This document shows, in pieces, positions 7,105-62,440 of a DNA stretch of 64,000 nt (within the stretch, counting starts at the first letter, position 1; each line of letters starts with the position of its first letter). Source of the DNA: an uncultured Candidatus Saccharibacteria bacterium (GTDB lineage: Bacteria > Patescibacteriota > Minisyncoccia > Minisyncoccales > JANBVM01); assembly GCA_964450805.1 (NCBI GenBank), contig CAYVDD010000001.1, forward strand, positions 329,288 to 393,287, written 5' to 3'. The notes below the pieces were generated by a model. It was not told the DNA's origin and searched no databases. It saw only the letters and a list, made by a program, of their open reading frames with translations. The translations under genes and the position numbers were made by a program.

Positions 7105-9324
7105 TTATTCCAATCCTAAATTTTTCAAAAACTCTTCAATACTTGGCTGTAGTGATGGATCAAGCTCTAACACCTTTAAAGCAGCCTCCTTGGCATCGTT
7201 TAATCTTCCGGCATTAGCATAACTTGCAGCCAAATTAGCCCATATTTCAGTATTTCTAGCATAATATTCAAGTTTTAGTACATCTTCGTAAATTTTAATC
7301 AATGCCTCTTCTCCTTGTACAGTACTGTAGATTTCGCCTCCATGCCTTAAAGTTTCTAAATTCTGTGTCCAGTTATAGCCATGTTCTTCTGCTTTTTTAA
7401 GTTCAGCAAAAGCCAAGTCGTACTCACCTGTTATTTTATATGCCATGGTCAAATACCAATAAGCCTGACCATATCTCGGTTCTAAATCAATTGCATATTG
7501 AAACAAATCATACGAAGTTTGGTAGTTACCTTTAAATAGTTCAATTTCAGCTAATTGCCAGTAAGTCTGTTGATTATTCGGGCTTAGCTCTTTTGCTTTT
7601 TCCATAGTCTTCTCTGCTAAATCTAGAATATCTTTGTCCTGACTAACACGATAATGGGCAAAATAGGTTCTTCCCAAAAAAAGATGTGGTCTGTAATCTA
7701 AAGGATTTTCTTTTATACTCTTTTCCATTTCTTGTTCAGCTAATTTAAAAAATTCTCCAATATTGCTGGGATATCCTGATTTTAAACTGGTTTGGACAAT
7801 TTTCTGAGCAAACTGTTCTCTGGCTTCATACTTATCCATAAAAGTATTTAAAGATTGTTTAAAATAATTTGCTGATTCCTCCGGACCTTCAGCCAAAACA
7901 ATCATATTAACAATATTCCTGGCGCCTAAATAAGGCTGAATGTTACCGTAAAAAAGCAGGATAACTGTTAACAATGCAACAGCACCAATTATTATTTGTC
8001 GTGTTTTTTTAGTGTGTATAAAACTGCTAGGTAAATTATATCCTGTATTTAAAAAAGAACCTTTATCTTCCTCAATTAAATAACTGATAAAACCCAAGGA
8101 TAAGAAGAAAACTACATAACTTGAAATCATATCAAAAACAAGCATGTTGTGAAAGAAATACACAATAAGCAGAACAATCATTATTAAAGGACCAAACATA
8201 TTTTCTTGTCTTTTAAAACAGATCTTTAAAAGATTAAAAATAGAAATTTCAAAAATGAATAAATAAGTTATGAAACCAACTATTCCTGTTGTAGTCAAAA
8301 TATCCAAGACAATATTATGAGCCCTATCAAACCAAATTTCACCACCACATTCATCTACAAACATGCATGGATTAAAAAATTCAACAAAAAGAACATTAAA
8401 ATTTTCTAGGCCCCATCCTAAAACAGGCTTTTTTAAAAATCCTTTCCAACTTGTTTCCCAAACAGCGACTCTTGGCCCCATCTCTTTTAAAGTTTGACTG
8501 ATTTTGGCCTTAATAAAAGAAGGATGAAGAATAAGTAATATTACAGCAATTATTACCAAAAAAGAAAAGATAAAAATTCCTATTTTCTGAATTTTTTTCT
8601 GTTTAGAAAATATTAAATAACCAAAGAATATAAGAAATAATCCCATTGCAAAAGAAATGATTGCACCTCTGGCACTAGAGGTTAATAAAGTAGGAATCAT
8701 GACTAGTAAAGATAAGCCAGAGAATAATCGCCATCCTGTATGCTTTCTCTCAAAAAACAAAAACAGGCTGAAAAAAACATTAAAAAGTAGATAGGCTGCC
8801 ATAAAGGAGGTATTTCCAATAGGACCTCCCCCTCTAGAAGAAACCTGCTCAGTTGTTACAAGACCAATACAGAGGAAGACTCCTGCTAATACTGAAACTG
8901 CAAGGAATTTTCTCCAGGCATCTTTATCTTTAAAAACACTTGTTAAAACTATAAAAAAGGCCAAAAGGTGTAAGAATGTAAAGATTCCTGTCATTCTTTC
9001 ATAAACACTCCAAAAGCTTCTTTTAAGATTGATTCCTAGAAAAGAAGTCAGAATAAGGATTAAAATGAATACTAGAATAGAAACGAAAAGACCATTCATT
9101 TTTGGACGGTAGCGGGGAGCAAATATTACCAAAATTAAATAAAAAGCAAAAATAATTTCTATTAGAATTCTGAAATAAATGGTTTTTGGGGTCACAAAAG
9201 GGAAAAAAGACCTCTGACTTACGATCAAAGGAGTAAAAAGACTCAAATAAATACCTGATTTGATGAAAAAGAGACAGATTTTCTCTAAAAATGGACCTAT
9301 ACTCTGTTTAGTTTTTTTATTCAT
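7105..9324 (-). CDS. O-antigen ligase/Wzy_C-family polytopic membrane protein with C-terminal TPR repeats
   Basis: Contains more than 10 predicted TM helices, SSARGAIISF...GWGLENF...RAHNIVLD (Wzy_C-like loop), and TPR-like repeats in the last ~250 aa. Confidence 0.7.
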   Translation of the reverse strand: MNKKTKQSIGPFLEKICLFFIKSGIYLSLFTPLIVSQRSFFPFVTPKTIYFRILIEIIFAFYLILVIFAPRYRPKMNGLFVSILVFILILILTSFLGINLKRSFWSVYERMTGIFTFLHLLAFFIVLTSVFKDKDAWRKFLAVSVLAGVFLCIGLVTTEQVSSRGGGPIGNTSFMAAYLLFNVFFSLFLFFERKHTGWRLFSGLSLLVMIPTLLTSSARGAIISFAMGLFLIFFGYLIFSKQKKIQKIGIFIFSFLVIIAVILLILHPSFIKAKISQTLKEMGPRVAVWETSWKGFLKKPVLGWGLENFNVLFVEFFNPCMFVDECGGEIWFDRAHNIVLDILTTTGIVGFITYLFIFEISIFNLLKICFKRQENMFGPLIMIVLLIVYFFHNMLVFDMISSYVVFFLSLGFISYLIEEDKGSFLNTGYNLPSSFIHTKKTRQIIIGAVALLTVILLFYGNIQPYLGARNIVNMIVLAEGPEESANYFKQSLNTFMDKYEAREQFAQKIVQTSLKSGYPSNIGEFFKLAEQEMEKSIKENPLDYRPHLFLGRTYFAHYRVSQDKDILDLAEKTMEKAKELSPNNQQTYWQLAEIELFKGNYQTSYDLFQYAIDLEPRYGQAYWYLTMAYKITGEYDLAFAELKKAEEHGYNWTQNLETLRHGGEIYSTVQGEEALIKIYEDVLKLEYYARNTEIWANLAASYANAGRLNDAKEAALKVLELDPSLQPSIEEFLKNLGLE

Positions 9325-9352
9325 TCAATTATTTTAACTAATATTAAAGATA

Positions 9353-9381
9353 TTGCAAATTTCAGCACAATTTATTAGAAT
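9353..9381 (+). promoter_or_regulatory. sigma70-type promoter (TTGCAA-17-TAGAAT), probably giving a leaderless or near-leaderless mRNA
   Basis: TTGCAA 9353-9358, 17-nt spacer, TAGAAT 9376-9381. The ATG at 9388 is only 6 nt after the -10, and no SD is present. Confidence 0.45.
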
Positions 9382-9387
9382 ATAGCT

Positions 9388-10698
9388 ATGTCAAATCTAA
9401 GAAAATTTGTCCTGCTTTTAGGAGATATTTTTCTACTCTATTTCTCACTACTCTTAACTGTACTCTTAGGATTTTTAGGAGATTTCAGCTTTGAACTCTT
9501 TGTTCTGCACTTATTGCCTTTTTCAATACTTTATGTTTTTTGGTTGATTATTTTCTATGTTTTTGGGCTCTATGATTTTCATCTAATAAAAACTAGGACT
9601 TCTTTTTACGCTAGTATCTTAGGAGCTATTGCTATTGGACTGGTATTGGGAATGCTTTTCTTTTATACTTTCCCATTTTTTGAAATTACGCCCAAAACTA
9701 ACTTGGTTATTAATGCTCTGCTTTTCGGAATACTGTTCTTAGGATGGCGCAGATTGTCTTATTCTCTATTTTCAGTCCACTTCTTAAGCAGAACAGCAAT
9801 TATAGGCAAAGGCCCTGAAATTGAATATCTTAAAAAAGAAATTAATGAAAAGCCTTATCTTGGTTACAAAGTTATCCCAATTGATATAACACAAGATTTA
9901 CTTTCTCAAATCCAAAATCTTAATATTGATACAGTAATTTTTACAGAAGAATTTGAATCAAATCCTAAAATACTTAAAGCGCTTTATTTCTGTCTTCCAG
10001 CAAAAGTGAATTTTTTGGAATTCTCAAAAGCTTATGAGTTAATTTATAGGAAAATTCCTGTTCAAATGGTTTCTAAGGCATGGTTTTTAGAAAATCTAAA
10101 AGAAGGAGAGAAAGGTTTTTATGATAAATCAAAAAAGTTTATTGATGTTATTATTGCCAGCATTATTCTCATTTTAAGTTTTCCTTTTTGGATACCGATT
10201 GCTATAGTTATCAAATTAGAGGATAAAGGACCTATTTTTTATTCACAGAAAAGAGTCGGTAAAGACAGAAAAGTTTTTATATTGTATAAATTTAGATCAA
10301 TGAGACCTGATGCTGAAAAAAATGGAGTTGTTTGGGCAAAAAAAGAAGATGAAAGAGTCACAAAGGTAGGCAGAATCTTGCGAAGAACTCATATTGACGA
10401 ATTTCCTCAGATGATAAATGTATTAAAAGGAGATATTTCTTTAATTGGACCAAGACCAGAAAGGCCGGAATTTGTACAAGAATTAGAGGGGAAAATCCCT
10501 CACTACCACTTGCGCCATATTATCAAACCCGGGTTTACTGGATGGGCTCAAATAAGATTCAGATATGGTAGATCAGTTATAGATAGTAGTGAAAAGTTTG
10601 AATATGATTTATATTATTTAAAAAATCGTAATTTCTTACTTGACATAGGAATATTGTTAAAAACCTTTCAATTATTCTTTAAGAATGAAAACTCTTAA
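9388..10698 (+). CDS. polyprenyl-phosphate glycosyl-1-phosphate transferase (WbaP/Bac_transf family priming enzyme)
   Basis: N-terminal TM helices, then KFRSM, DEFPQ and GDISLIGPRPERPEF motifs. Confidence 0.85.
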   Translation: MSNLRKFVLLLGDIFLLYFSLLLTVLLGFLGDFSFELFVLHLLPFSILYVFWLIIFYVFGLYDFHLIKTRTSFYASILGAIAIGLVLGMLFFYTFPFFEITPKTNLVINALLFGILFLGWRRLSYSLFSVHFLSRTAIIGKGPEIEYLKKEINEKPYLGYKVIPIDITQDLLSQIQNLNIDTVIFTEEFESNPKILKALYFCLPAKVNFLEFSKAYELIYRKIPVQMVSKAWFLENLKEGEKGFYDKSKKFIDVIIASIILILSFPFWIPIAIVIKLEDKGPIFYSQKRVGKDRKVFILYKFRSMRPDAEKNGVVWAKKEDERVTKVGRILRRTHIDEFPQMINVLKGDISLIGPRPERPEFVQELEGKIPHYHLRHIIKPGFTGWAQIRFRYGRSVIDSSEKFEYDLYYLKNRNFLLDIGILLKTFQLFFKNENS

Positions 10699-37559: not shown

Positions 37560-37596
37560 ATTTGACATAAATTCAGAAAATGTAATCATTAAAGAT

Positions 37597-37674
37597 TAAA
37601 GAAAGGAAACCTGGTGAAAATCCAGGGCTGTGCCGCAACTGTAATCCAACTGGTGAGTCAGAATACTTTCTTTA
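37597..37674 (+). promoter_or_regulatory. cobalamin riboswitch aptamer (compact form)
   Basis: Core AAAGGAAACCTGGTGAAAATCCAGGGCTGTGCCGCAACTGTAA matches the conserved GGGAA..GGTGAAAATCC..GCCGCAACTGTAA pattern of cobalamin riboswitches. P1 is closed by TAAAGAAAG (37597-37605) and CTTTCTTTA (37666-37674). Confidence 0.75.
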
Positions 37675-37733
37675 GTAATTAATAATATTTTTCTTTTCGA
37701 GCAAAAAGAAAAGTAAGCTGTTTTTTGAAATAG

Positions 37734-37762: not shown

Positions 37763-39553
37763 ATGAAAAAGAAAATTTCAATTATTTTTCTAGCTACACT
37801 TCTTATTGTATCTTTTGCTGGCATTTCTAGTTCAGAGTCAGAAACAGACAAAGCTGCTAATTACCTCAAATCCCAACCTCAGACTCCTTGGAGCACCATG
37901 GCTTTGGCAGCTAATAATGAATTAGGTCTTGATTTAAGCCACTTAGTCTCTGTTCCTTCAGATCAGAAATCTCCCACTACTTATGCAAAATATATTCTGG
38001 CTTTAGTTGCAGCTGGGCAAAACCCAACCACTTTTGGAGATGAGAATTATGTGGAGCAATTAAAAACTTATTACCAGAACAACCAGTTTGGACAAGAGGA
38101 TCTTATTAATGATGACTTTTGGGCGATTTTAGCTTTAGGAGCACTTGGCCAGGAAAACCTGCAAATGGTTCAAGATGCCAAGCAGTATATTTTAAATAAC
38201 CAGAATGTAAATGGAGGCTGGGGATATGATCTTTCTTCTTCAGATACCAATGATACAGCATCTGCTATAATAGCTCTTTTAGAAGCTGGTGTTTCTGCTT
38301 CTTCACCAGTTATTCAAAACGCATTGTCTTATTTAAAATCCGCTCAAAATGATGATGGTGGTTTTCCTTATACCCTTGGCTCTGCTTCTGATTCCTGCTC
38401 TGATTCCTGGATAATCTCAGCTATTTACAGAGTTAAACAAGACCCTGCTGTTGACTGGATGAAAAATGGAAATAACCCTTTAGACCATCTTAGATCTTTA
38501 CAGGATGAAGATGGTGGTTTCTGGTGGCAAGTTCAGGGAGACAATAAATTCTGCAGCCCTTACGCTCTTTTATCTTTACTTGAACAATCTTACCCAGTTA
38601 AAACAGATTACAATAAGCACAGTATAAGGATTGAAGGCCAGCAAGATACTGTTTGTAATATACAGGTTCATGGAGGAACAGCAATGGATCTTATTGTTTC
38701 TGGAGCTGAAGCCTGTGGCTATAATTACACTATTGTTGAATATACTGGCATGGGTCTTTATTTGTCAGAATTAGCAGGAGAAACCAGCTGGATGTTTATG
38801 GTAAACAATATTTCACCAACAGTAGGAGCAGATAATTATTATTTGAATCCAACTGACAAAGTTTTATGGTTTTCAGGAGACTGGCTGGATGCAGGCTGGC
38901 ATCCAACCAGAATTGAACTAACTCAGACTGATAGTTTAATTACTATTCAGGTTCAGTATTATGATCCAGTAAATAACCAGTGGCAGAATTTAGCAGTAAC
39001 AGGAGTCAAGGTAAAGATTGGCTCTTCAGAACTTACAACAGATAATCAAGGCAAGATTGAAATCGCTTCAAACAGTTTGGAAAATGGTTTTTATGAAGTA
39101 TTTGCGGAGACTCAAATTATTCAGGATATAGGATATATCCGCAGTGAAAAAGTGAGTTTAAAAACAGGAGAAACTCCTGTAGACCATCAGGCTGGATTAA
39201 TGGTTGAAATTGAAAAAATCCAGGTTCCTGACAAAGGAGAGCAAACCGCTATCAGTTTTTCAGTAGAACCCGACTTGTTGGACTTTGGAAAGCTCAAGCC
39301 CGGAGAAAGTAGCAATTCCAGTTTAACTGTTGTAAACGGCCAGACAGCGATTTATTTAGAAGCAGAAGTAAGCGGAGCAAGTGTTTTTCAGGATAATCTA
39401 AAAATCAGTGAACAAATGTGGCAGTTTTTTTCTGCTGACATAGATGCAAACCAAAGCGAGATTCTGCCTATTTATTTCAGTATTCCTGTAACCTATAATG
39501 ATAACTTTGGTTTGCAGGAAGGAAGTATAATTTTTTGGGCTATACAAAAATGA
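37763..39553 (+). CDS. secreted transcobalamin-like protein: alpha/alpha-toroid (prenyltransferase/squalene-oxidase-type repeats) + DUF4430-like domain + C-terminal beta-sandwich domains; putative B12-capture protein
   Basis: Signal peptide MKKKISIIFLATLLIVSFAGISS. Repeats NVNGGWGY, QNDDGGFPY and QDEDGGFWW. Then IRIEGQQDTVCNIQVHGGTAMDLIV...GLYLSELAGETSWMFMVNNISPTVGADNYYLNPTDKVLWF (DUF4430 pattern). Sits directly behind the cobalamin riboswitch. Confidence 0.6.
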   Translation: MKKKISIIFLATLLIVSFAGISSSESETDKAANYLKSQPQTPWSTMALAANNELGLDLSHLVSVPSDQKSPTTYAKYILALVAAGQNPTTFGDENYVEQLKTYYQNNQFGQEDLINDDFWAILALGALGQENLQMVQDAKQYILNNQNVNGGWGYDLSSSDTNDTASAIIALLEAGVSASSPVIQNALSYLKSAQNDDGGFPYTLGSASDSCSDSWIISAIYRVKQDPAVDWMKNGNNPLDHLRSLQDEDGGFWWQVQGDNKFCSPYALLSLLEQSYPVKTDYNKHSIRIEGQQDTVCNIQVHGGTAMDLIVSGAEACGYNYTIVEYTGMGLYLSELAGETSWMFMVNNISPTVGADNYYLNPTDKVLWFSGDWLDAGWHPTRIELTQTDSLITIQVQYYDPVNNQWQNLAVTGVKVKIGSSELTTDNQGKIEIASNSLENGFYEVFAETQIIQDIGYIRSEKVSLKTGETPVDHQAGLMVEIEKIQVPDKGEQTAISFSVEPDLLDFGKLKPGESSNSSLTVVNGQTAIYLEAEVSGASVFQDNLKISEQMWQFFSADIDANQSEILPIYFSIPVTYNDNFGLQEGSIIFWAIQK

Positions 39554-55799: not shown

Positions 55800-55939
55800 G
55801 CATTGTTTATCGGAGAAATACGACTTTCAAATGCTAATTAATAAAAAATCGCAAGAATCTATATTCTATAAATCTGAATGTAATGATTTTAATACTAACA
55901 CATTGTCAAAGAAAATTCCTGTGGAAAATTATTTTCGCA

Positions 55940-57973: not shown

Positions 57974-58002
57974 ACTATATCAAAAACAAAAAAATTGGTC
58001 AA
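57974..58002 (-). promoter_or_regulatory. sigma70-type promoter (TTGACC-17-TATAGT) for the HTH gene
   Basis: Minus strand TTGACC (58002-57997), 17-nt spacer, TATAGT (57979-57974). The ATG is 16 nt downstream. Confidence 0.55.
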
Positions 58003-58004
58003 AA

Positions 58005-58140
58005 AAAATACAACAATACTATTATGGAATAATCTCTGGAAAACTTAATAATAACTTGTTTAAAACTCTGTGGAATTTTTGTGTACCTTTTGTGTGTTTT
58101 TTGTTATATATTTGTTATCTATTTGTAATAGAGTCTTTGG
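58005..58140. repeat. ~135-bp intergenic module 'Y', copy A (between divergent promoters)
   Basis: Colinear by-eye alignment with 58989-59120: aaaatacaaca..tggaa.aatctctggaaaa..ttaataacttgtt.aaa..ctgtg.aatttttgtg...ttttgtgtgttt.ttgt.atat.t.tta.ctatttgtaataga..ctttgg. Confidence 0.7.
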
Positions 58141-58141
58141 T

Positions 58142-58170
58142 TTGACAAATTTAATAAAATATTATATAGT
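58142..58170 (+). promoter_or_regulatory. sigma70-type promoter (TTGACA-17-TATAGT) for the 75-aa membrane protein gene
   Basis: TTGACA 58142-58147 and TATAGT 58165-58170. A strong SD (AAGGAGGTGA, 58195-58204) precedes the ATG at 58209. Confidence 0.6.
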
Positions 58171-58208
58171 TCAAGTATTAAAATTTAAAAAAATAAGGAG
58201 GTGATTGA

Positions 58209-58436
58209 ATGGTAGAGCTAGAGTTTATCATATTATTAACAATAACGTTGTTTGGTAATTTTGCGGTGTTAACGTTCGCATATGAGTTCTTAGGAAAAGT
58301 TTTCCAAAGAGATAAAAAACAAAAGATTTGTTTATTTATTATCCTGGTTTGGGGAATGGTTTTTTTCTCTGTAATACTAATTTGGCTCTCATATAAACCC
58401 TACATAGTATTATTCCAAGTAGTGTTTGTAGAATAA
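58209..58436 (+). CDS. 75-aa two-TM small membrane protein, unknown function
   Basis: Consensus promoter, a perfect SD at correct spacing, two hydrophobic helices, and its own terminator. Confidence 0.7.
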   Translation: MVELEFIILLTITLFGNFAVLTFAYEFLGKVFQRDKKQKICLFIILVWGMVFFSVILIWLSYKPYIVLFQVVFVE

Positions 58437-58473
58437 TATTTTTTTAGTTCTTTTTATAGGTTTGAAAAAGGCG

Positions 58474-58498
58474 AAACTGCTTTTAAAAGCAGTTTTTT
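58474..58498. terminator. rho-independent terminator
   Basis: AACTGCTTTT/AAAAGCAGTT perfect palindrome followed by a T-run. Confidence 0.75.
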
Positions 58499-58618
58499 AT
58501 CTTAATGAAATAATAGATATTCTCTAATATTAATATATTTTTTTATTTCTTTCTTTTCTTCGTTTCATTATATTCAACTCGTCCGAGGGACGGACGATAT
58601 TAAAACCTTTTTAAGGAG

Positions 58619-59014
58619 GTAATCAACAAAAACCGCCTTAATAGAATAATATATATAAAAAAATACGGCTTATTTAACTTCGCCGTTTTTAACGGTTTTC
58701 CGAAAAAAAATGAGATTATGTATAAATAAATACCTCTTCCCAGTTCGAAAAGGGTAATTTTGTCTTTTTTTCTTTCTCCTCTTTCACTTCTTGTTCTTCT
58801 TCTTTCATTATAAAATAGACCTCTTTTTTTCTTTTATTTTTTAATTAATGTTTTATTTTTAGATGCTACCAATACTTATTAAAAAGTCAAAACCCGAATC
58901 AGAGGATTGGGTTTTAACAACTCGGAGTAGGACTCACTTCGATAAATTCAGAGGAAACTTCTCATCCCTAAACAGAATATCTCAAAATAAAATACAACAG
59001 CACTGTTGTGGAAA
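58619..59014. repeat. ~400-bp direct repeat 'X', copy 1 (upstream flank of the RM gene)
   Basis: Aligns colinearly with 61661-62100. Identical runs of ~53, 37 and 37 nt are separated by substitutions and a 33-nt indel. Confidence 0.85.
58716..58808 (-). CDS. 30-aa acidic/Lys-rich micro-protein (paralog of 61773-61898)
   Basis: Own translation MKEEEQEVKEEKEKKTKLPFSNWEEVFIYT*, with an AGAGG upstream. The paralog differs by an in-frame 11-codon indel and keeps the stop position. Confidence 0.45.
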   Translation of the reverse strand: MKEEEQEVKEEKEKKTKLPFSNWEEVFIYT

Positions 59015-59120
59015 AATCTCTGGAAAAGCTTTTAATAACTTGTTAAAAATCCTGTGTAATTTTTGTGCATGTTTTGTGTGTTTGTTGTATATTTATTACC
59101 TATTTGTAATAGAACTTTGG
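58989..59120. repeat. ~135-bp module 'Y', copy B (fused to the end of X copy 1, upstream of the RM gene)
   Basis: See copy A; the same order of conserved blocks. Confidence 0.7.
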
Positions 59121-59201
59121 CAAGTATCCCAGCGGCAGGGCTTTGCAGATGTGTTTTTCTTTGCTAAGATTAAATTAGATTTAGCAATTGTGGAAAACTT
59201 T

Positions 59202-61592
59202 ATGAATAAGTTCAATTTCAGCAAAATCCAAGTTTCAACGGAAGAAGATGTAAAAGTTAAAATTATTGCAAAGTTGTTAAAACATTTAGGATTTTCTGAA
59301 AACGTTTCTGGTGAGGTAGAGTACGACAAACCTATTTCTATTGGTAGAGGTAGACACGTATATCCTGATATAGTCGTTAATATAAACAAAGCCCCCGCTT
59401 TTGTTATTGACTCTAAAGCCCCAAACGAAAATCTTGACTTTTATAAAGAGCAAGTAATTTCTTATGGATTACTTTTAAGAGTGCCCTATTCAGTTTTGTG
59501 TAATGGTCAGGAATTAAGGGTTTATGATACAAGAACTGAAGAGGTTGTTTGGAATAAGGATGTATCTGTATTTCCAAAGTTCTTAAGTAAAAAAGGTTTA
59601 GTAGAAAAGATTAAGAAATCCATTGATACTCTTACCAAAGAACAAGAAGAGAAAGCAAAAAAGACTTTATCGGTTTTTGAGGGCATCAGAGAATTTTCTT
59701 CAATCTTTTACAAATGCGAAGATTTAATAAGAGATATTGATGGCCTTACAGGTGCTGATGCATTCGATGAATTAAGCATGTTGCTCTTTACTAAAATGTA
59801 TGAAGAACAAAAAGCACTTGAAGAAAATAGAAAAAGTAGATTTATTATAAGTGAACAGACAGATGCACATTATATCAAAAATGATTTATTCAAAAGGGCT
59901 GTAGATGATAATCCTGATATTTTTGAGGGAAATGAGAAAATTACATTAGATAATGAAACTGTGAAGGGTATTACTAAATTATTACAAGATTATACTCTTT
60001 TAGAGACAGATGTTGATGTTAAGGGACGGGCTTTTGAGATTTTTCTTGGTAAAACTTTTACTGGTAAGTTGGGTCAATTCTTTACTCCTCGAACTATAGT
60101 TGATTTCATGGTCAATTTTGTAAACCCAACCAGGCTATCTAATGGTAAAAACTTATATTCTGTTATAGACCCCGCCTGTGGAAGCGGTGGTTTTTTAATT
60201 CGTGTTTTCACTCATATAGCAAATCAAATTAAAGAGATAGAGAAAGATAGCGATAAGAGAAAAGAGGCTTTAGACATTTTATCAAAACAACAGCTTTTTG
60301 GGGTTGATATAAACCCTCGTTTAGTCAGGATTGCTAAAATGAATATGGTACTACATGGAGATGGGCATGGAGGTATTTTCCGCCACAATGGATTAAAGAC
60401 ACATCAACACGAACGTCTCATTGGTAAAGAATTTGATTTGGTAATCACGAATCCACCTTTTGGCAATAAAGATAAGGGAGATATATTAAAAGAGTTTCAG
60501 TTGGGCAAATATACTACTGGTAATCCTCCAGAACAGGCGAGAGAAATTTTGTTTATTGAAGAGTGTATAAAATTATTGAAAGAGAATGGTGAATTAGCCA
60601 TTTTACTTCCTGATGGCATTCTCAATAATTCTCGATTGAATTATGTTAGAGAATTTATTAAAAAGCACACCATAATTCAGGCGATTATTAGCTTGCCGGA
60701 TAGAGCTTTTAAGGCTTCGGGTGCAAATAGTAAAACCAGCGTTATTTTCGTTAGAAAAAAAAGTAATCACGAAACACAAAAACCAGTATTTATGGCTATT
60801 GCAGAAGAGGTGGGTTATGATAGACAAACTAAAGAAGCTAAGGCAATAAGCCAAAACGATTTACCTTTAATATTAAAACAATATAAAGATTTCTTAACCA
60901 CTCAAACTTATAGGTCAATCCAATCAAACATTGATAAGGTTTATATTATATCTGAAGAGCCAGCTTCTTTTATGATTGACTCGGATTTATTAGATAAAAG
61001 ATTAGATGCTACTTATTTTTACTCAAAACATGTATTCAAGTTAGATGTGCCAAGTATTAAGTTATCAGACATAGCTTATTTATCGGAAGATAGAATAAAT
61101 CCAGAGAAGTATTCAAAAAGAATCTTTAAATATATGCAATTCAGTGATGTAGAAAAAAGACTCGGTAGTATTGTCTCCTGGTCAAATTATGCAGGTGATG
61201 AGATGCCATCGAGGGCACGAATGTTAATAAAGTCAGGCGATGTAATAGCGGCTAAGGTAAAAGATAGTGAAGAAAATGTAGCTATTATTCCAAAAGAGCT
61301 AAACGGAGAAGTTGTTTCAACTGGGTTTGCTGTTTTGAGACCGAAGAAAGGTGTTGCGTCTGAAGTATTATATGTCTTAATGAGGCTTAAAAGCACTTTC
61401 AATCAAATTAGATGGATGGTAGCTGGTACAATCCAGCCAGCGATTAAAGATGAAGATTTGATGCAAATTATATTACCGAAATTAAATAAAGGAACACAAG
61501 ATAAAGTTATCAAAAGAATTAAAAAGATTGAGAAAGCACGAGAAAAAGTCAGAAAAGAACTCGAGGAAGTAGAAAAAATAATAATTGATTAA
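59202..61592 (+). CDS. single-chain restriction-modification enzyme: N-terminal PD-(D/E)xK nuclease (HSDR_N-like) + gamma-class N6-adenine DNA methyltransferase (HsdM-like) + one HsdS-like target-recognition domain (Type IIG/IIB-like)
   Basis: YPDIVV...FVIDSKAP (PD...DxK), VIDPACGSGGFLI (motif I), VITNPPFG (motif IV), and a C-terminal TRD ending in a coiled-coil tail. Start set at MNKFNF (59202), because the upstream 113 codons of the ORF-track model lie in repeated intergenic DNA. Confidence 0.8.
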   Translation: MNKFNFSKIQVSTEEDVKVKIIAKLLKHLGFSENVSGEVEYDKPISIGRGRHVYPDIVVNINKAPAFVIDSKAPNENLDFYKEQVISYGLLLRVPYSVLCNGQELRVYDTRTEEVVWNKDVSVFPKFLSKKGLVEKIKKSIDTLTKEQEEKAKKTLSVFEGIREFSSIFYKCEDLIRDIDGLTGADAFDELSMLLFTKMYEEQKALEENRKSRFIISEQTDAHYIKNDLFKRAVDDNPDIFEGNEKITLDNETVKGITKLLQDYTLLETDVDVKGRAFEIFLGKTFTGKLGQFFTPRTIVDFMVNFVNPTRLSNGKNLYSVIDPACGSGGFLIRVFTHIANQIKEIEKDSDKRKEALDILSKQQLFGVDINPRLVRIAKMNMVLHGDGHGGIFRHNGLKTHQHERLIGKEFDLVITNPPFGNKDKGDILKEFQLGKYTTGNPPEQAREILFIEECIKLLKENGELAILLPDGILNNSRLNYVREFIKKHTIIQAIISLPDRAFKASGANSKTSVIFVRKKSNHETQKPVFMAIAEEVGYDRQTKEAKAISQNDLPLILKQYKDFLTTQTYRSIQSNIDKVYIISEEPASFMIDSDLLDKRLDATYFYSKHVFKLDVPSIKLSDIAYLSEDRINPEKYSKRIFKYMQFSDVEKRLGSIVSWSNYAGDEMPSRARMLIKSGDVIAAKVKDSEENVAIIPKELNGEVVSTGFAVLRPKKGVASEVLYVLMRLKSTFNQIRWMVAGTIQPAIKDEDLMQIILPKLNKGTQDKVIKRIKKIEKAREKVRKELEEVEKIIID

Positions 61593-61660
61593 CAAATTAT
61601 GAAGAAACCTTCAACTGGTGTCTGCTTCTTCAACCACTACTGCTTTTGCCTTGCCCTAGA

Positions 61661-62100
61661 GATAATCAATTAAAACTACCTTAAATGAAGCACAATAGAA
61701 TAATATATAATAGTAAAAAAATACGGCTTATTTAACTTCGCCGTTTTTAACGGTTTTCCGAAAAAAATTAGATCAGGTAAAAGAAAATACCTCTTCCCAG
61801 CTAAAAAAAGGCAATTTTGTCTTTTTTTCTTTCTCCTCTTTCACTTCTTTCACTTCTTCCCAGCCTAATTCTGCTAATTTTTTAATATCTTCTTTCATTA
61901 TAGACCTCTTTTTTATTTTATTTTTTAGTTAAATGTTCTATTTTTAGATGGTACCAATACTTATTAAAAAGTCAAAACCCGAATCAGAAGCTCGGGTTTC
62001 AATAACTCGGTGGTAGGACTCCCTCCGGTAAACCCAGAAGAAACTTCTCATCCAACAGAATATCCCAAAACGAAAACACAACAGCTTATTTGTGGAAAAA
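61661..62100. repeat. ~400-bp direct repeat 'X', copy 2 (downstream flank of the RM gene)
   Basis: See copy 1; offset ~3.05 kb. Confidence 0.85.
61773..61898 (-). CDS. 41-aa acidic/Lys-rich micro-protein (paralog of 58716-58808)
   Basis: Own translation MKEDIKKLAELGWEEVKEVKEEKEKKTKLPFFSWEEVFSFT*, with an AGAGG 6 nt upstream of the ATG. Confidence 0.45.
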   Translation of the reverse strand: MKEDIKKLAELGWEEVKEVKEEKEKKTKLPFFSWEEVFSFT

Positions 62101-62338
62101 AAGAAAAGGGATGAAAAAAAGCTCACCCCAAAATAACTACTAAACTTAATGAACTACTACATGAACTACATGAACTATACGAAACGAAATAACGAACACT
62201 ACCCTTTTTTTCATCACCTCTAGTCTATTAATATATATTTTATTATTCAAAAAAATTTGTCAATTGTGGAAAAATAAACAAGAGACAATTTGTCTCTTAT
62301 AGGATTAAAAAATTATCTTTCTTTGTGTTTAAATATAA

Positions 62339-62440
62339 TTAATACTGAAAAGCGTAATAAAGCATCCAGCCAATCACAAAAAAGGCAATTATAAGGTCGA
62401 ATAAAAGAAATATGCCGCCTTTTTGAAAATTAATTTGCAT
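62339..62440 (-). CDS. 33-aa hydrophobic single-TM micro-protein (tentative)
   Basis: Own translation MQINFQKGGIFLLFDLIIAFFVIGWMLYYAFQY*. It starts 6 nt after the stop of the upstream HtrA-like gene. Confidence 0.3.
   Translation of the reverse strand: MQINFQKGGIFLLFDLIIAFFVIGWMLYYAFQY

Follow-up and report, generated by a model that had tools for sequence, protein, structure and literature searches.

Restriction-modification (RM) genes can enter bacterial genomes by insertion accompanied by a long duplication of the target (Nobusato et al. 2000; Furuta, Abe, Kobayashi 2010, PMC2853133), and genomic islands, including cis-mobilizable elements (CIMEs), can accumulate by tandem accretion through site-specific recombination (Pavlovic 2004; Bellanger 2011; reviewed in PMC5704250). 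Both precedents bear on a locus in a 64-kb stretch of contig CAYVDD010000001.1 (positions 329,288 to 393,287; hereafter the window, whose coordinates are used throughout), in which an RM gene lies between two diverged direct repeats of ~400 bp, X1 and X2. Defence islands and integration hotspots between conserved core genes are, furthermore, known from the pan-genomes of E. coli and Pseudomonas, and the islands of Dehalococcoides carry their own recombinases together with short direct repeats of the ssrA 3' end. In the streamlined genome of Dehalococcoides, tandem cargo islands integrate at the end of the tmRNA (small-RNA) gene (PMC3146451). A first-pass annotation of the window had proposed that X might have been duplicated as a target around the RM gene in a recombination-prone site. 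The present analysis points to a different arrangement, in which the RM gene is the cargo of one of two similarly built units that share a site-like junction, termed J, and a second repeat, termed Y.

Along the plus strand the locus runs J1, Y1, a gene for a 75-aa protein, X1, J2, Y2, the RM gene, X2 and J3, and it reads as two tandem units of one design with different cargo, 1.0 and 3.1 kb in size. To its left lies a DeoR-type regulator gene on the minus strand; to its right, a conserved promoter/short-transcript segment is followed by a protease operon, likewise on the minus strand. The account considered probable, well short of certainty, is that these two tandem J-Y-cargo-X-J units arose by CIME-like accretion or by duplication of a unit at J.

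The evidence begins with the repeats themselves. The two colinear copies of X that had been noted around the RM gene, with ~2.6 kb between them, were confirmed both by BLASTN, which pairs 58640-59016 with 61694-62100 at 80.3% identity over 412 columns (E 7.6e-106), and by a global alignment, which stretches them to 58615-59016 and 61661-62100. The latter holds 349 identical columns, 40 substitutions (26 of them transitions) and 12 indel events, corresponding to ~90% identity at aligned bases and ~77-80% with gap columns counted. The identical runs given as ~53, 37 and 37 nt were recovered as one of 54 nt (58656-58709, equivalent to 61714-61767) and two of 37 nt (58756-58792 and 58867-58903 in X1), and the large indel does total 33 nt, in frame within a small open reading frame (ORF) on the minus strand. 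In trials with 52 randomly placed break events, 0.02% gave three runs of 37 nt or longer, and 1.6% gave a run of 54 nt or longer. The motif TTGTGGAAAA occurs four times in the window, always on the plus strand within 59006-62273 (0.57 expected), and the 13-mer described earlier is indeed found at 59185 and 62261. BLASTN detected no further copy of X in the 64-kb window, and exact X probes of 26-35 nt gave 0 matches in 185,579 species genomes, the JGI metagenomes and IMG/VR; across the sequences searched, X is therefore not a common dispersed repeat. Contigs of the same sample in the Logan collection (SRR14802572) are 100% identical to the window (contigs and loci used for comparison carry L numbers here). 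One of them, L001, ends at 61959, 30 nt into a shared run, and another, L017, begins at 58685, 25 nt into a shared run, as expected when a short-k-mer assembly graph branches at a true repeat.

The second repeat, Y, of ~140 nt, had been overlooked. Its copies at 57999-58140 and 58982-59120 are 82.5% identical over 143 columns (BLASTN, E 3e-34). The first ~33 nt of Y are the last ~33 nt of X, so that the start of Y overlaps the end of X1, and the junction J is therefore present three times, at 58000, 58984 and 62068, always in the same orientation, with the copies only ~79% alike. J1 (58000..58032) is degenerate and joins Y1 (58033..58140), the 5' frame of unit 1, to the promoter of the DeoR-type gene, for which the promoter scan gives TTGACC-17-TATAGT at 58002-57974 on the minus strand. 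J2 (58984..59016) is the junction between the units, where the end of X1 is fused to the start of Y2 (59017..59120), the 5' frame of unit 2; it contains the perfect palindrome ACAACAG-CA-CTGTTGT, followed by GGAAAAA. J3 (62068..62100) joins X2 to the conserved promoter/short-transcript segment and is 87% identical over 38 nt to a sequence of a relative (L021:2914-2951). In make-up, J3 combines the chromosomal left flank, the core and X, J2 combines Y, the core and X, and J1 combines Y, the core and the chromosomal right flank. The three junctions thereby follow the attL/attP/attR pattern of tandem integrated elements, with J as a putative attachment (att) site.

Relatives that carry the same neighbourhood provide the external evidence for this layout. 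Anchored on the protease (76-86% identical at the protein level), they share synteny up to ~62330 of the window, just past a 33-aa membrane ORF. Beyond that point, two contigs of an 85% relative stop, one complete genome continues with recG, and another relative has an island of small genes including a methyltransferase. The contigs L002 and L003 run for 379 nt beyond the protease. The DeoR-type gene served as a second anchor (70% amino acid identity in L016, 72% in L018-L020 and 71% in L021). In L016, ClpB, the protease and the 33-aa ORF are followed by a 7-kb unrelated island, then by a Y-core-like end, a box and promoter as at window 62274-62225, and a short transcript with its terminator. 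After these, a single J (ACAACAGCACTGTTGTATTTT; TTTTTTACAACAGCACTGTTGTATTTT) occupies L016:9925-9950, between the short transcript and the DeoR promoter, which it directly abuts, and there is no unit there. A virtual deletion of the window between J3 and J1 aligns colinearly with L016, and J2 and the L016 J share the perfect 7-2-7 palindrome. The alignable part comprises the J core (~21 nt) and the flanks only, not the 400-bp X, so that the single X module expected at an empty site was not borne out; X is absent from L016 and from L018-L023.

Other relatives fill the slot differently. L018-L020 carry a different Type IIG enzyme of 959 aa (PADLOC, 6.5e-99) together with a GmrSD_N/NsnA-like protein, upstream of the Y-core, that is, the first ~60 nt of Y1 (58025-58085) with its TTTTCCA(C/G)A-type boxes, which is 85-90% identical in L018-L023 although the adjoining protein is only ~71% identical there. 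In L021 the slot is filled by an island of 6.2 kb that encodes a QatC-like protein (1.1e-57); the island opens with a J-like sequence and a tRNA-like piece (2915), ends at the Y-core and is bounded by the direct repeat TTYCCACAGAT; L018 lacks this island, though the same gene remnant precedes the site. In L006, which comes from the same assembly as L021 and probably from the same genome, a J followed by GGTTCGAGTCCTGCTGCCGGAGCCA stands at the start of yet another island (11367). Judged from these sequences, the slot between the ClpB-protease operon and the DeoR-sigma-antisigma operon behaves as a variable, defence-rich hotspot. The empty and alternative-cargo sites whose absence would have told against the first-pass annotation thus both exist (L016 for the former, L018-L020 and L021 for the latter), and its view of the RM gene as mobile cargo at a variable site is upheld by them and by the phage-like and recombinase contexts of RM homologues.

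The RM gene (cargo 2, 59202..61592, plus strand) encodes a single-chain restriction-modification enzyme of 796 aa, identified with Pfam and PADLOC. An N-terminal PD-(D/E)xK nuclease domain (HSDR_N_2, residues 14-114, 1.2e-6) precedes an N6_Mtase domain (residues 271-579, 8e-46; Eco57I, 1e-15), and the motifs PD...DSK, DPACGSGGF and NPPF are present. The C-terminal ~210 aa have no Pfam match, are kept in homologues of 803 aa and form a putative target-recognition region. The PADLOC models MTase_I and REase_MTase_IIG both match the protein, which can be classed as a Type IIG-like single-chain enzyme with a predicted nuclease and a predicted gamma-type N6-adenine methyltransferase. Its homologues, with identities of 84%, 76% and less, begin at the same position and have 803 aa. 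A start at 59203 was rejected in favour of 59202, as was a 909-aa version from an ATG at 58863, since the homologues are 803 aa long and homology begins at ~59130/59202. The public annotation (P0121) nevertheless has 909 aa, with 113 stop-free in-frame codons (58863-59201) that cross X1, J2 and Y2; this gene call is probably too long, with 796 aa as the predicted length.

The edges of the imported segment are sharp. DNA homology of the RM gene to L009-L011 is confined to window 59130-61584, beginning 10 nt past Y2 and ending at the stop codon, and is bracketed by the end of Y2 at 59120 and the start of X2 at ~61661. The upstream region (59130..59201, plus strand), with an extended -10-like element TTTGCTAAGAT and the leader TGTGGAAAACTTT-ATG, is 76.5% identical to that of the homologue in L009-L011 and is kept in L012; the leader motif TGTGGAWAACTTT is likewise kept upstream of RM homologues in unrelated contexts. 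The copy of the 13-mer before the RM gene therefore belongs to the gene's own leader and travelled with it. After the stop codon, a unique spacer (61593..61660) with a GAAGAA...TTCTTC hairpin is homologous neither to the flank of X1 nor to L009 or L012. The closest homologue of the enzyme (84% amino acid identity), to which this DNA homology refers, lies on a phage-like contig with Phage_rep_O, a ParB-methylase and a GpA-type terminase. The next (76%) is found between rplS and rbfA and has a large serine recombinase as its neighbour. These comparisons indicate that the RM gene is imported, horizontally mobile cargo. As a separate observation, the 76% homologue is divergently paired with its recombinase and inserted among tRNA, rplS and rbfA genes (L012:3921-8544, and also L013 and L015), recombinase and RM gene thus forming a compact mobile unit.

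Cargo 1 (58142..58436, plus strand) consists of a strong sigma-70-like promoter (58142-58170, 11/12 matches) and a membrane-like ORF of 75 aa (58209-58436), for which neither a Pfam family nor a homologue in the fetched loci was found. A bidirectional terminator-like hairpin follows (58473..58496, terminator scan).

Each X copy, in turn, is more than a spacer. X1 (58615..59016) is the 3' frame of unit 1 and X2 (61661..62100) that of unit 2, and repeat alignments together with promoter and fold scans give both the same organization on the minus strand. X1 comprises J2 (59016-58984), a piece resembling a tRNA 3' end (58941-58921), a hairpin (58918-58886), the promoter TTGACT-16-(TG)TAGCAT (58890-58863), which the hairpin overlaps, the ribosome-binding site AAGAGGT, the 30-aa ORF sX1 (58808-58716; MKEEEQEVKEEKEKKTKLPFSNWEEVFIYT) and the 54-nt identical tract (58709-58656). 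X2 comprises J3 (62100-62068), the tRNA-3'-end-like piece (62029-62007), the hairpin (62002-61972), the promoter TTGACT-16-(TG)TACCAT (61975-61948), again overlapped by the hairpin, a ribosome-binding site, the 41-aa ORF sX2 (61898-61773; MKEDIKKLAELGWEEVKEVKEEKEKKTKLPFFSWEEVFSFT) and the same tract (61767-61714). Both copies thus share a TG-extended promoter, TTGACT-16-TAsCAT, overlapping a stem-loop that is followed by UGACUUUUU; the fold has z values of -2.75 and -2.47 in the two copies, and the stem is kept in both despite differing sequence in one arm. The two ORFs are in the same frame and stop at the same position (TAA vs TGA), differ by the in-frame 33-nt indel and show synonymous changes at Leu, Pro and Thr codons. 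A profile of sX1 and sX2, run against 1.84e9 representatives, recovered both copies and two more proteins of 41 aa, P0364 (E 4.7e-5; MKDEITEKLEELGWEEEIEKEDKKEKKKKLDFSWEDVFSFT) and P0365 (E 4.4e-4; ...GKEKKTKLPFSNLEDVFAYT), which carry the C-terminal motif KKxKLxFSxxE[DE]VFxxT of sX and are encoded on contigs of 1,497 nt (P0364, Logan) and 2,773 nt (P0365, ENA). No sX homologue was found by tblastn in the fetched loci, and none was confirmed in a search of JGI metagenomes run on a low-complexity pattern.

The matching promoters and hairpins, the conservation of the ORF and the two further family members argue that X is a gene module, a predicted small minus-strand transcription unit that is convergent with the cargo and encodes a conserved protein of 30 or 41 aa. 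The three long identical runs of X map to the promoter, the coding region and the 3' tract of this unit. The 54-nt tract is tentatively labelled a terminator, the caution being due to its weak fold (z -1.6). A minus-strand ORF of 35 aa that covers the tRNA-like piece in X2 was set aside as not kept, since the X1 frame stops after 5 codons. Rfam gave no known RNA family in X, Y or J, neither at its gathering threshold nor with E relaxed to 5. The outer edge of X1 carries, in addition, a strong Shine-Dalgarno-like sequence, TAAGGAGGTAATC (58611-58623, plus strand), with no start codon downstream. It is not kept in X2 (TAGAGATAATC), its minus-strand reading resembles the 3' end of 16S rRNA, and it is probably a relic.

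Compared with the described systems, the locus most resembles CIMEs. It shares with them integrase-less tandem elements with att-like direct repeats in the order attL-element-att-element-attR, and a single site in the empty relative; by inspection, the att-like region may also resemble a tRNA 3' end. Direct repeats stand at both element ends and at the tandem junction (J1, J2 and J3), and one att-like site marks the unoccupied locus of L016. Unlike CIMEs, these units measure a mere 1.0 and 3.1 kb, two of the junctions (J1 and J3) are degenerate, no cognate integrase, intact tRNA gene or excision was found, and the att identity of J is inferred. Conserved flanks around differing, defence-rich content (Type IIG RM, GmrSD-like, QatC-like) recall defence hotspots. 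Unlike those, however, the slot lies in a ~0.64-Mb genome of the candidate phyla radiation (CPR) and is framed by duplicated small-gene/operator modules rather than bare intergenic DNA. In Dehalococcoides, by contrast, ssrA is the identified target, whereas this window yielded neither a tRNA or tmRNA gene nor a recombinase. Cargo units separated by repeated site-like junctions, with no adjacent integrase, are also a property of integron cassettes and of clusters of attC sites lacking integron integrases (CALIN arrays). Here, however, the window holds no IntI or tyrosine recombinase domain, J (a 7-2-7 palindrome with A/T-rich flanks) lacks the R''-L''/L'-R' architecture and the GTTRRRY core of attC, and the units share the long framing sequences X and Y, which integron cassettes do not.

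Under the favoured account, a whole unit would have been added at J, rather than an RM insertion duplicating its target, and two routes can be envisaged, namely tandem accretion at J of two related, now integrase-less islands, or unequal recombination at J with a slot allele of a diverged relative that carried the RM gene. Units could then be lost or swapped by recombination between copies of J, X or Y, and a recombinase supplied in trans may or may not take part. Deletion or exchange between the flanks, as suggested in the first-pass annotation, is plausible in view of the identical tracts of 37-54 nt; no such event was seen. X and Y would provide regulation and termination around the slot, and the RM protein, presumably an ordinary defence enzyme, would function independently of both. 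The evidence fits a site-specific as well as a homologous mechanism.

An insertion in which a single X was doubled by the arrival of the RM gene, without mobile-element machinery, would belong to a class documented for Type I-IV systems with repeats of up to ~420 bp (PMC2853133). Several properties agree with it: the insert holds predicted restriction and modification functions and nothing else mobile in less than 20 kb, no mobility gene is adjacent, the direct repeats exceed 30 bp and run to hundreds of bp, and an insert-less relative exists. Yet Y is doubled too, on the RM-proximal side of X1, and unit 1 has cargo of its own; the duplicated entity is therefore the whole unit frame, and the claim that X was duplicated as the target around the RM gene gives way to a Y/X/J frame present twice, also around the 75-aa gene. 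In contrast to long target duplications, the repeats are diverged, hold a small gene, are joined by Y and frame two cargo units, their 40 substitutions and 12 indels set against ~93-100% identity in published cases (PMC2853133). The imported RM segment, moreover, ends at the Y2/X2 edges instead of splitting one X, and no single uninterrupted X was found in an insert-less relative among these distant genomes, the empty site aligning with the ~21-33-nt J only. For an ancient event such a duplication is possible, yet it is not the simplest reading and appears quite unlikely. Less likely again is an old tandem duplication by unequal crossing-over, after which the RM gene replaced one cargo without any mobility of the element, X and Y being paralogous chromosomal genes and regulatory regions. 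The similar divergence of X and Y (80% and 82.5% by BLAST), the bona fide small gene in X and the status of the Y-core as a conserved chromosomal element in all relatives would suit it. It needs, however, a second, precise cargo swap at the exact frame edges, and it leaves unexplained why J and the tRNA-like piece open unrelated islands in L021 and L006.

A more dynamic alternative, judged unlikely, takes J as the target of a site-specific recombinase whose gene lies at another place in the genome or in a phage, with a serine recombinase at the 7-2-7 palindrome or a tyrosine recombinase at a dif-like 11-6-11 site as candidates, so that integrase-less Y-cargo-X units would excise as circles and reintegrate. 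Three J copies in direct orientation exactly at the unit boundaries speak for it, as do the one J at the empty site, the palindrome common to J2 and the L016 J, the J-like sequences bounding islands in two other scaffolds and the large serine recombinase with which an RM homologue travels. Against this, neither the 64 kb nor the 10 kb next to it yielded a recombinase, two of the three J copies (J1 and J3) are degenerate, 7-2-7 palindromes are not rare in AT-rich DNA, the box in J acts like a promoter-proximal operator, and a degenerate J pattern had 4 matches in IMG/VR, all chance occurrences within coding DNA. Its narrower form, in which a trans-acting Nealsonbacteria recombinase at J would shuffle Y-cargo-X cassettes, each with its own small gene and operator array, is unlikely. 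As regards the machinery, the reported lack of integrase, transposase and terminal inverted repeats agrees with the new searches: Pfam showed no recombinase or transposase domain in window ORFs of 150 aa or more, the proteins tested from the L006 and L021 islands matched no recombinase in Pfam or PHROG, and there are no long terminal inverted repeats, so that a transposon was rejected, the inverted matches being short and of low complexity. Finally, two strain alleles, one with the 75-aa gene and one with the RM gene, might have been stitched in tandem by the assembler, since the same-sample short-read contigs break inside the shared runs and the inner junction was not recovered independently. 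This is extremely improbable: the outer junctions are confirmed at 100% identity, J1, J2 and J3 are only ~79% alike and so lack the perfectly matching stretch on which an assembler could have joined them wrongly, the 40 substitutions and 12 indels between X1 and X2 stand beside flanks that do not vary within the sample, and on a 636-kb NCBI contig the 909-aa gene call runs through X1, J2, Y2 and the RM gene.

Several observations nonetheless weigh against unit-wise accretion at J. The conservation seen in J and Y is likely in part regulatory rather than recombinational, because the box TTTTCCACA(R), which forms half of J and occurs in arrays in the Y-core, also sits upstream of the -35 elements of ordinary promoters. 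It is found in the window at 55919-55927, 59006-59015, 62090-62099 and 62264-62273 and in relatives at L016:9739 and 12101, L018:8859 and 11993, and L021:9171 and 11989. It recurs beside TTGACA -35 elements, directly adjoins that of the conserved promoter at 62263, and in one copy lies ~10 nt upstream of the -35 of the promoter of a 1378-aa gene, an arrangement kept in four genomes. A local regulator probably has its operator in this box, and it may be guessed that the Y/J boxes form an operator array for the adjacent DeoR-type regulator. The tRNA resemblance of the X piece is a matter of inspection. The best version, in L006, reads GGTTCGAGTCC-TGC-TGCCGGA-G-CCA, with decayed versions in L021, X1 and X2; neither in the window nor in the key loci did ARAGORN and Infernal find a tRNA or tmRNA, the L006 fragment was likewise negative when searched as a truncated tRNA, and a tRNA-like 25-mer had 0 matches in IMG/VR. 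The inner join X1-J2-Y2-RM comes from the window assembly only, X beyond J and the tRNA-like piece was found in no other genome, and no excision product, circular form or population variant was seen in the assembled contigs compared. The relatives are distant (flanking proteins 70-87%), so that the single J of L016 could be ancestral or the result of a later deletion, and the long identical runs of X could equally reflect gene conversion or function. As a separate matter, TTTTCCACA fits the relaxed DnaA box TTWTNCACA. An oriC or DnaA-box cluster was rejected because neither gene orientation nor the sign of the GC skew changes across the locus, the general box pattern is not enriched in the window, and the box stands beside ordinary -35 elements in four genomes.

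The wider setting is that of a Candidatus Nealsonbacteria bacterium (Patescibacteria/CPR). The window has a G+C content of 31.8%, its proteins resemble those of Candidatus Nealsonbacteria and Patescibacteria metagenome-assembled genomes, and the protease adjoining the locus has an identical copy in NCBI and in a Logan contig of run SRR14802572. Positions 1-51 kb hold a large glycosyltransferase/polysaccharide cluster, inside which an adenosylcobalamin (AdoCbl, B12) riboswitch aptamer (37580-37719, plus strand), which scores 63.6 bits against a gathering score of 50, immediately precedes a 596-aa ORF (37763-39553). Left of the locus, the minus strand encodes the DeoR-type helix-turn-helix protein (start 57954), an ECF-type sigma factor, a DUF5667 protein and the 1378-aa protein; right of it, also on the minus strand, are a trypsin-like protease and ClpB. 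The ClpB and protease genes are 3 nt apart in the window. In relatives the gap holds an extra ~860 nt (L016:1015-1877) or a 204-aa gene (L006:9217-9831), so that this gap, too, is a small spot of variation. The protease gene is immediately followed by a 33-aa membrane ORF (MQINFQKGGIFLLFDLIIAFFVIGWMLYYAFQY; 62339-62440, minus strand), which is kept in L004, L006 and L016, though missing from the gene lists of those contigs, and the terminator of the ClpB-protease-33-aa ORF operon follows (62278..62300, minus strand), close to where the common synteny of the relatives stops at ~62330.

The conserved chromosomal segment next to J3 (62108..62273, minus strand) is homologous to the segment adjoining J in L016 and contains the box TTTTTCCACAA (62273-62263), the -35 element TTGACA (62263-62258), a 22-aa ORF and a terminator (62129-62108). 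The 22-aa Val/His-rich ORF (MKKRVVFVISFRIVHVVHVVVH; 62146-62214, minus strand; ribosome-binding site AGAGGTG), placed between the conserved promoter and this terminator, looks like a leader peptide; at its place L016 has a non-homologous short transcript of similar length. In L018 and L021, the promoter after the protease operon (TTGACAAATTTTT...) drives an unannotated, GC-richer transcript of ~300 nt with a strong terminator, present in L018 as two tandem copies (L018:8960-9250 and 9320-9650) and in L021 at 9286-9610, for which Rfam gave no match, and L002 and L006 have a different short hairpin RNA there (GGGCAGRAAGG...CTTTCTGCCCC).

Taken together, the locus is a known kind of feature, an RM gene in a defence hotspot whose direct repeats probably stem from unit-wise gain, with an unusually tidy layout, and its description also corrects a likely over-extended RM gene call from 909 to 796 aa. 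CPR genomes are very small and have few recognisable mobile elements, and the gain and loss of defence genes in them is poorly known. Against this background, the locus offers an example, mapped to the base pair, of a slot between two conserved operons that holds different defence cargo in different lineages, in which short att-like junctions mark the limits of the units and every unit is framed by a conserved gene for a small protein. Should J not be a recombination site, the locus would still illustrate cleanly how homologous recombination can maintain a hotspot. If, in turn, J is one, it would show how defence cassettes can be exchanged in integrase-poor genomes, and a recombinase acting in trans, if confirmed, would point to an integron- or CIME-like exchange of defence cassettes in the ultra-small genomes of CPR bacteria.

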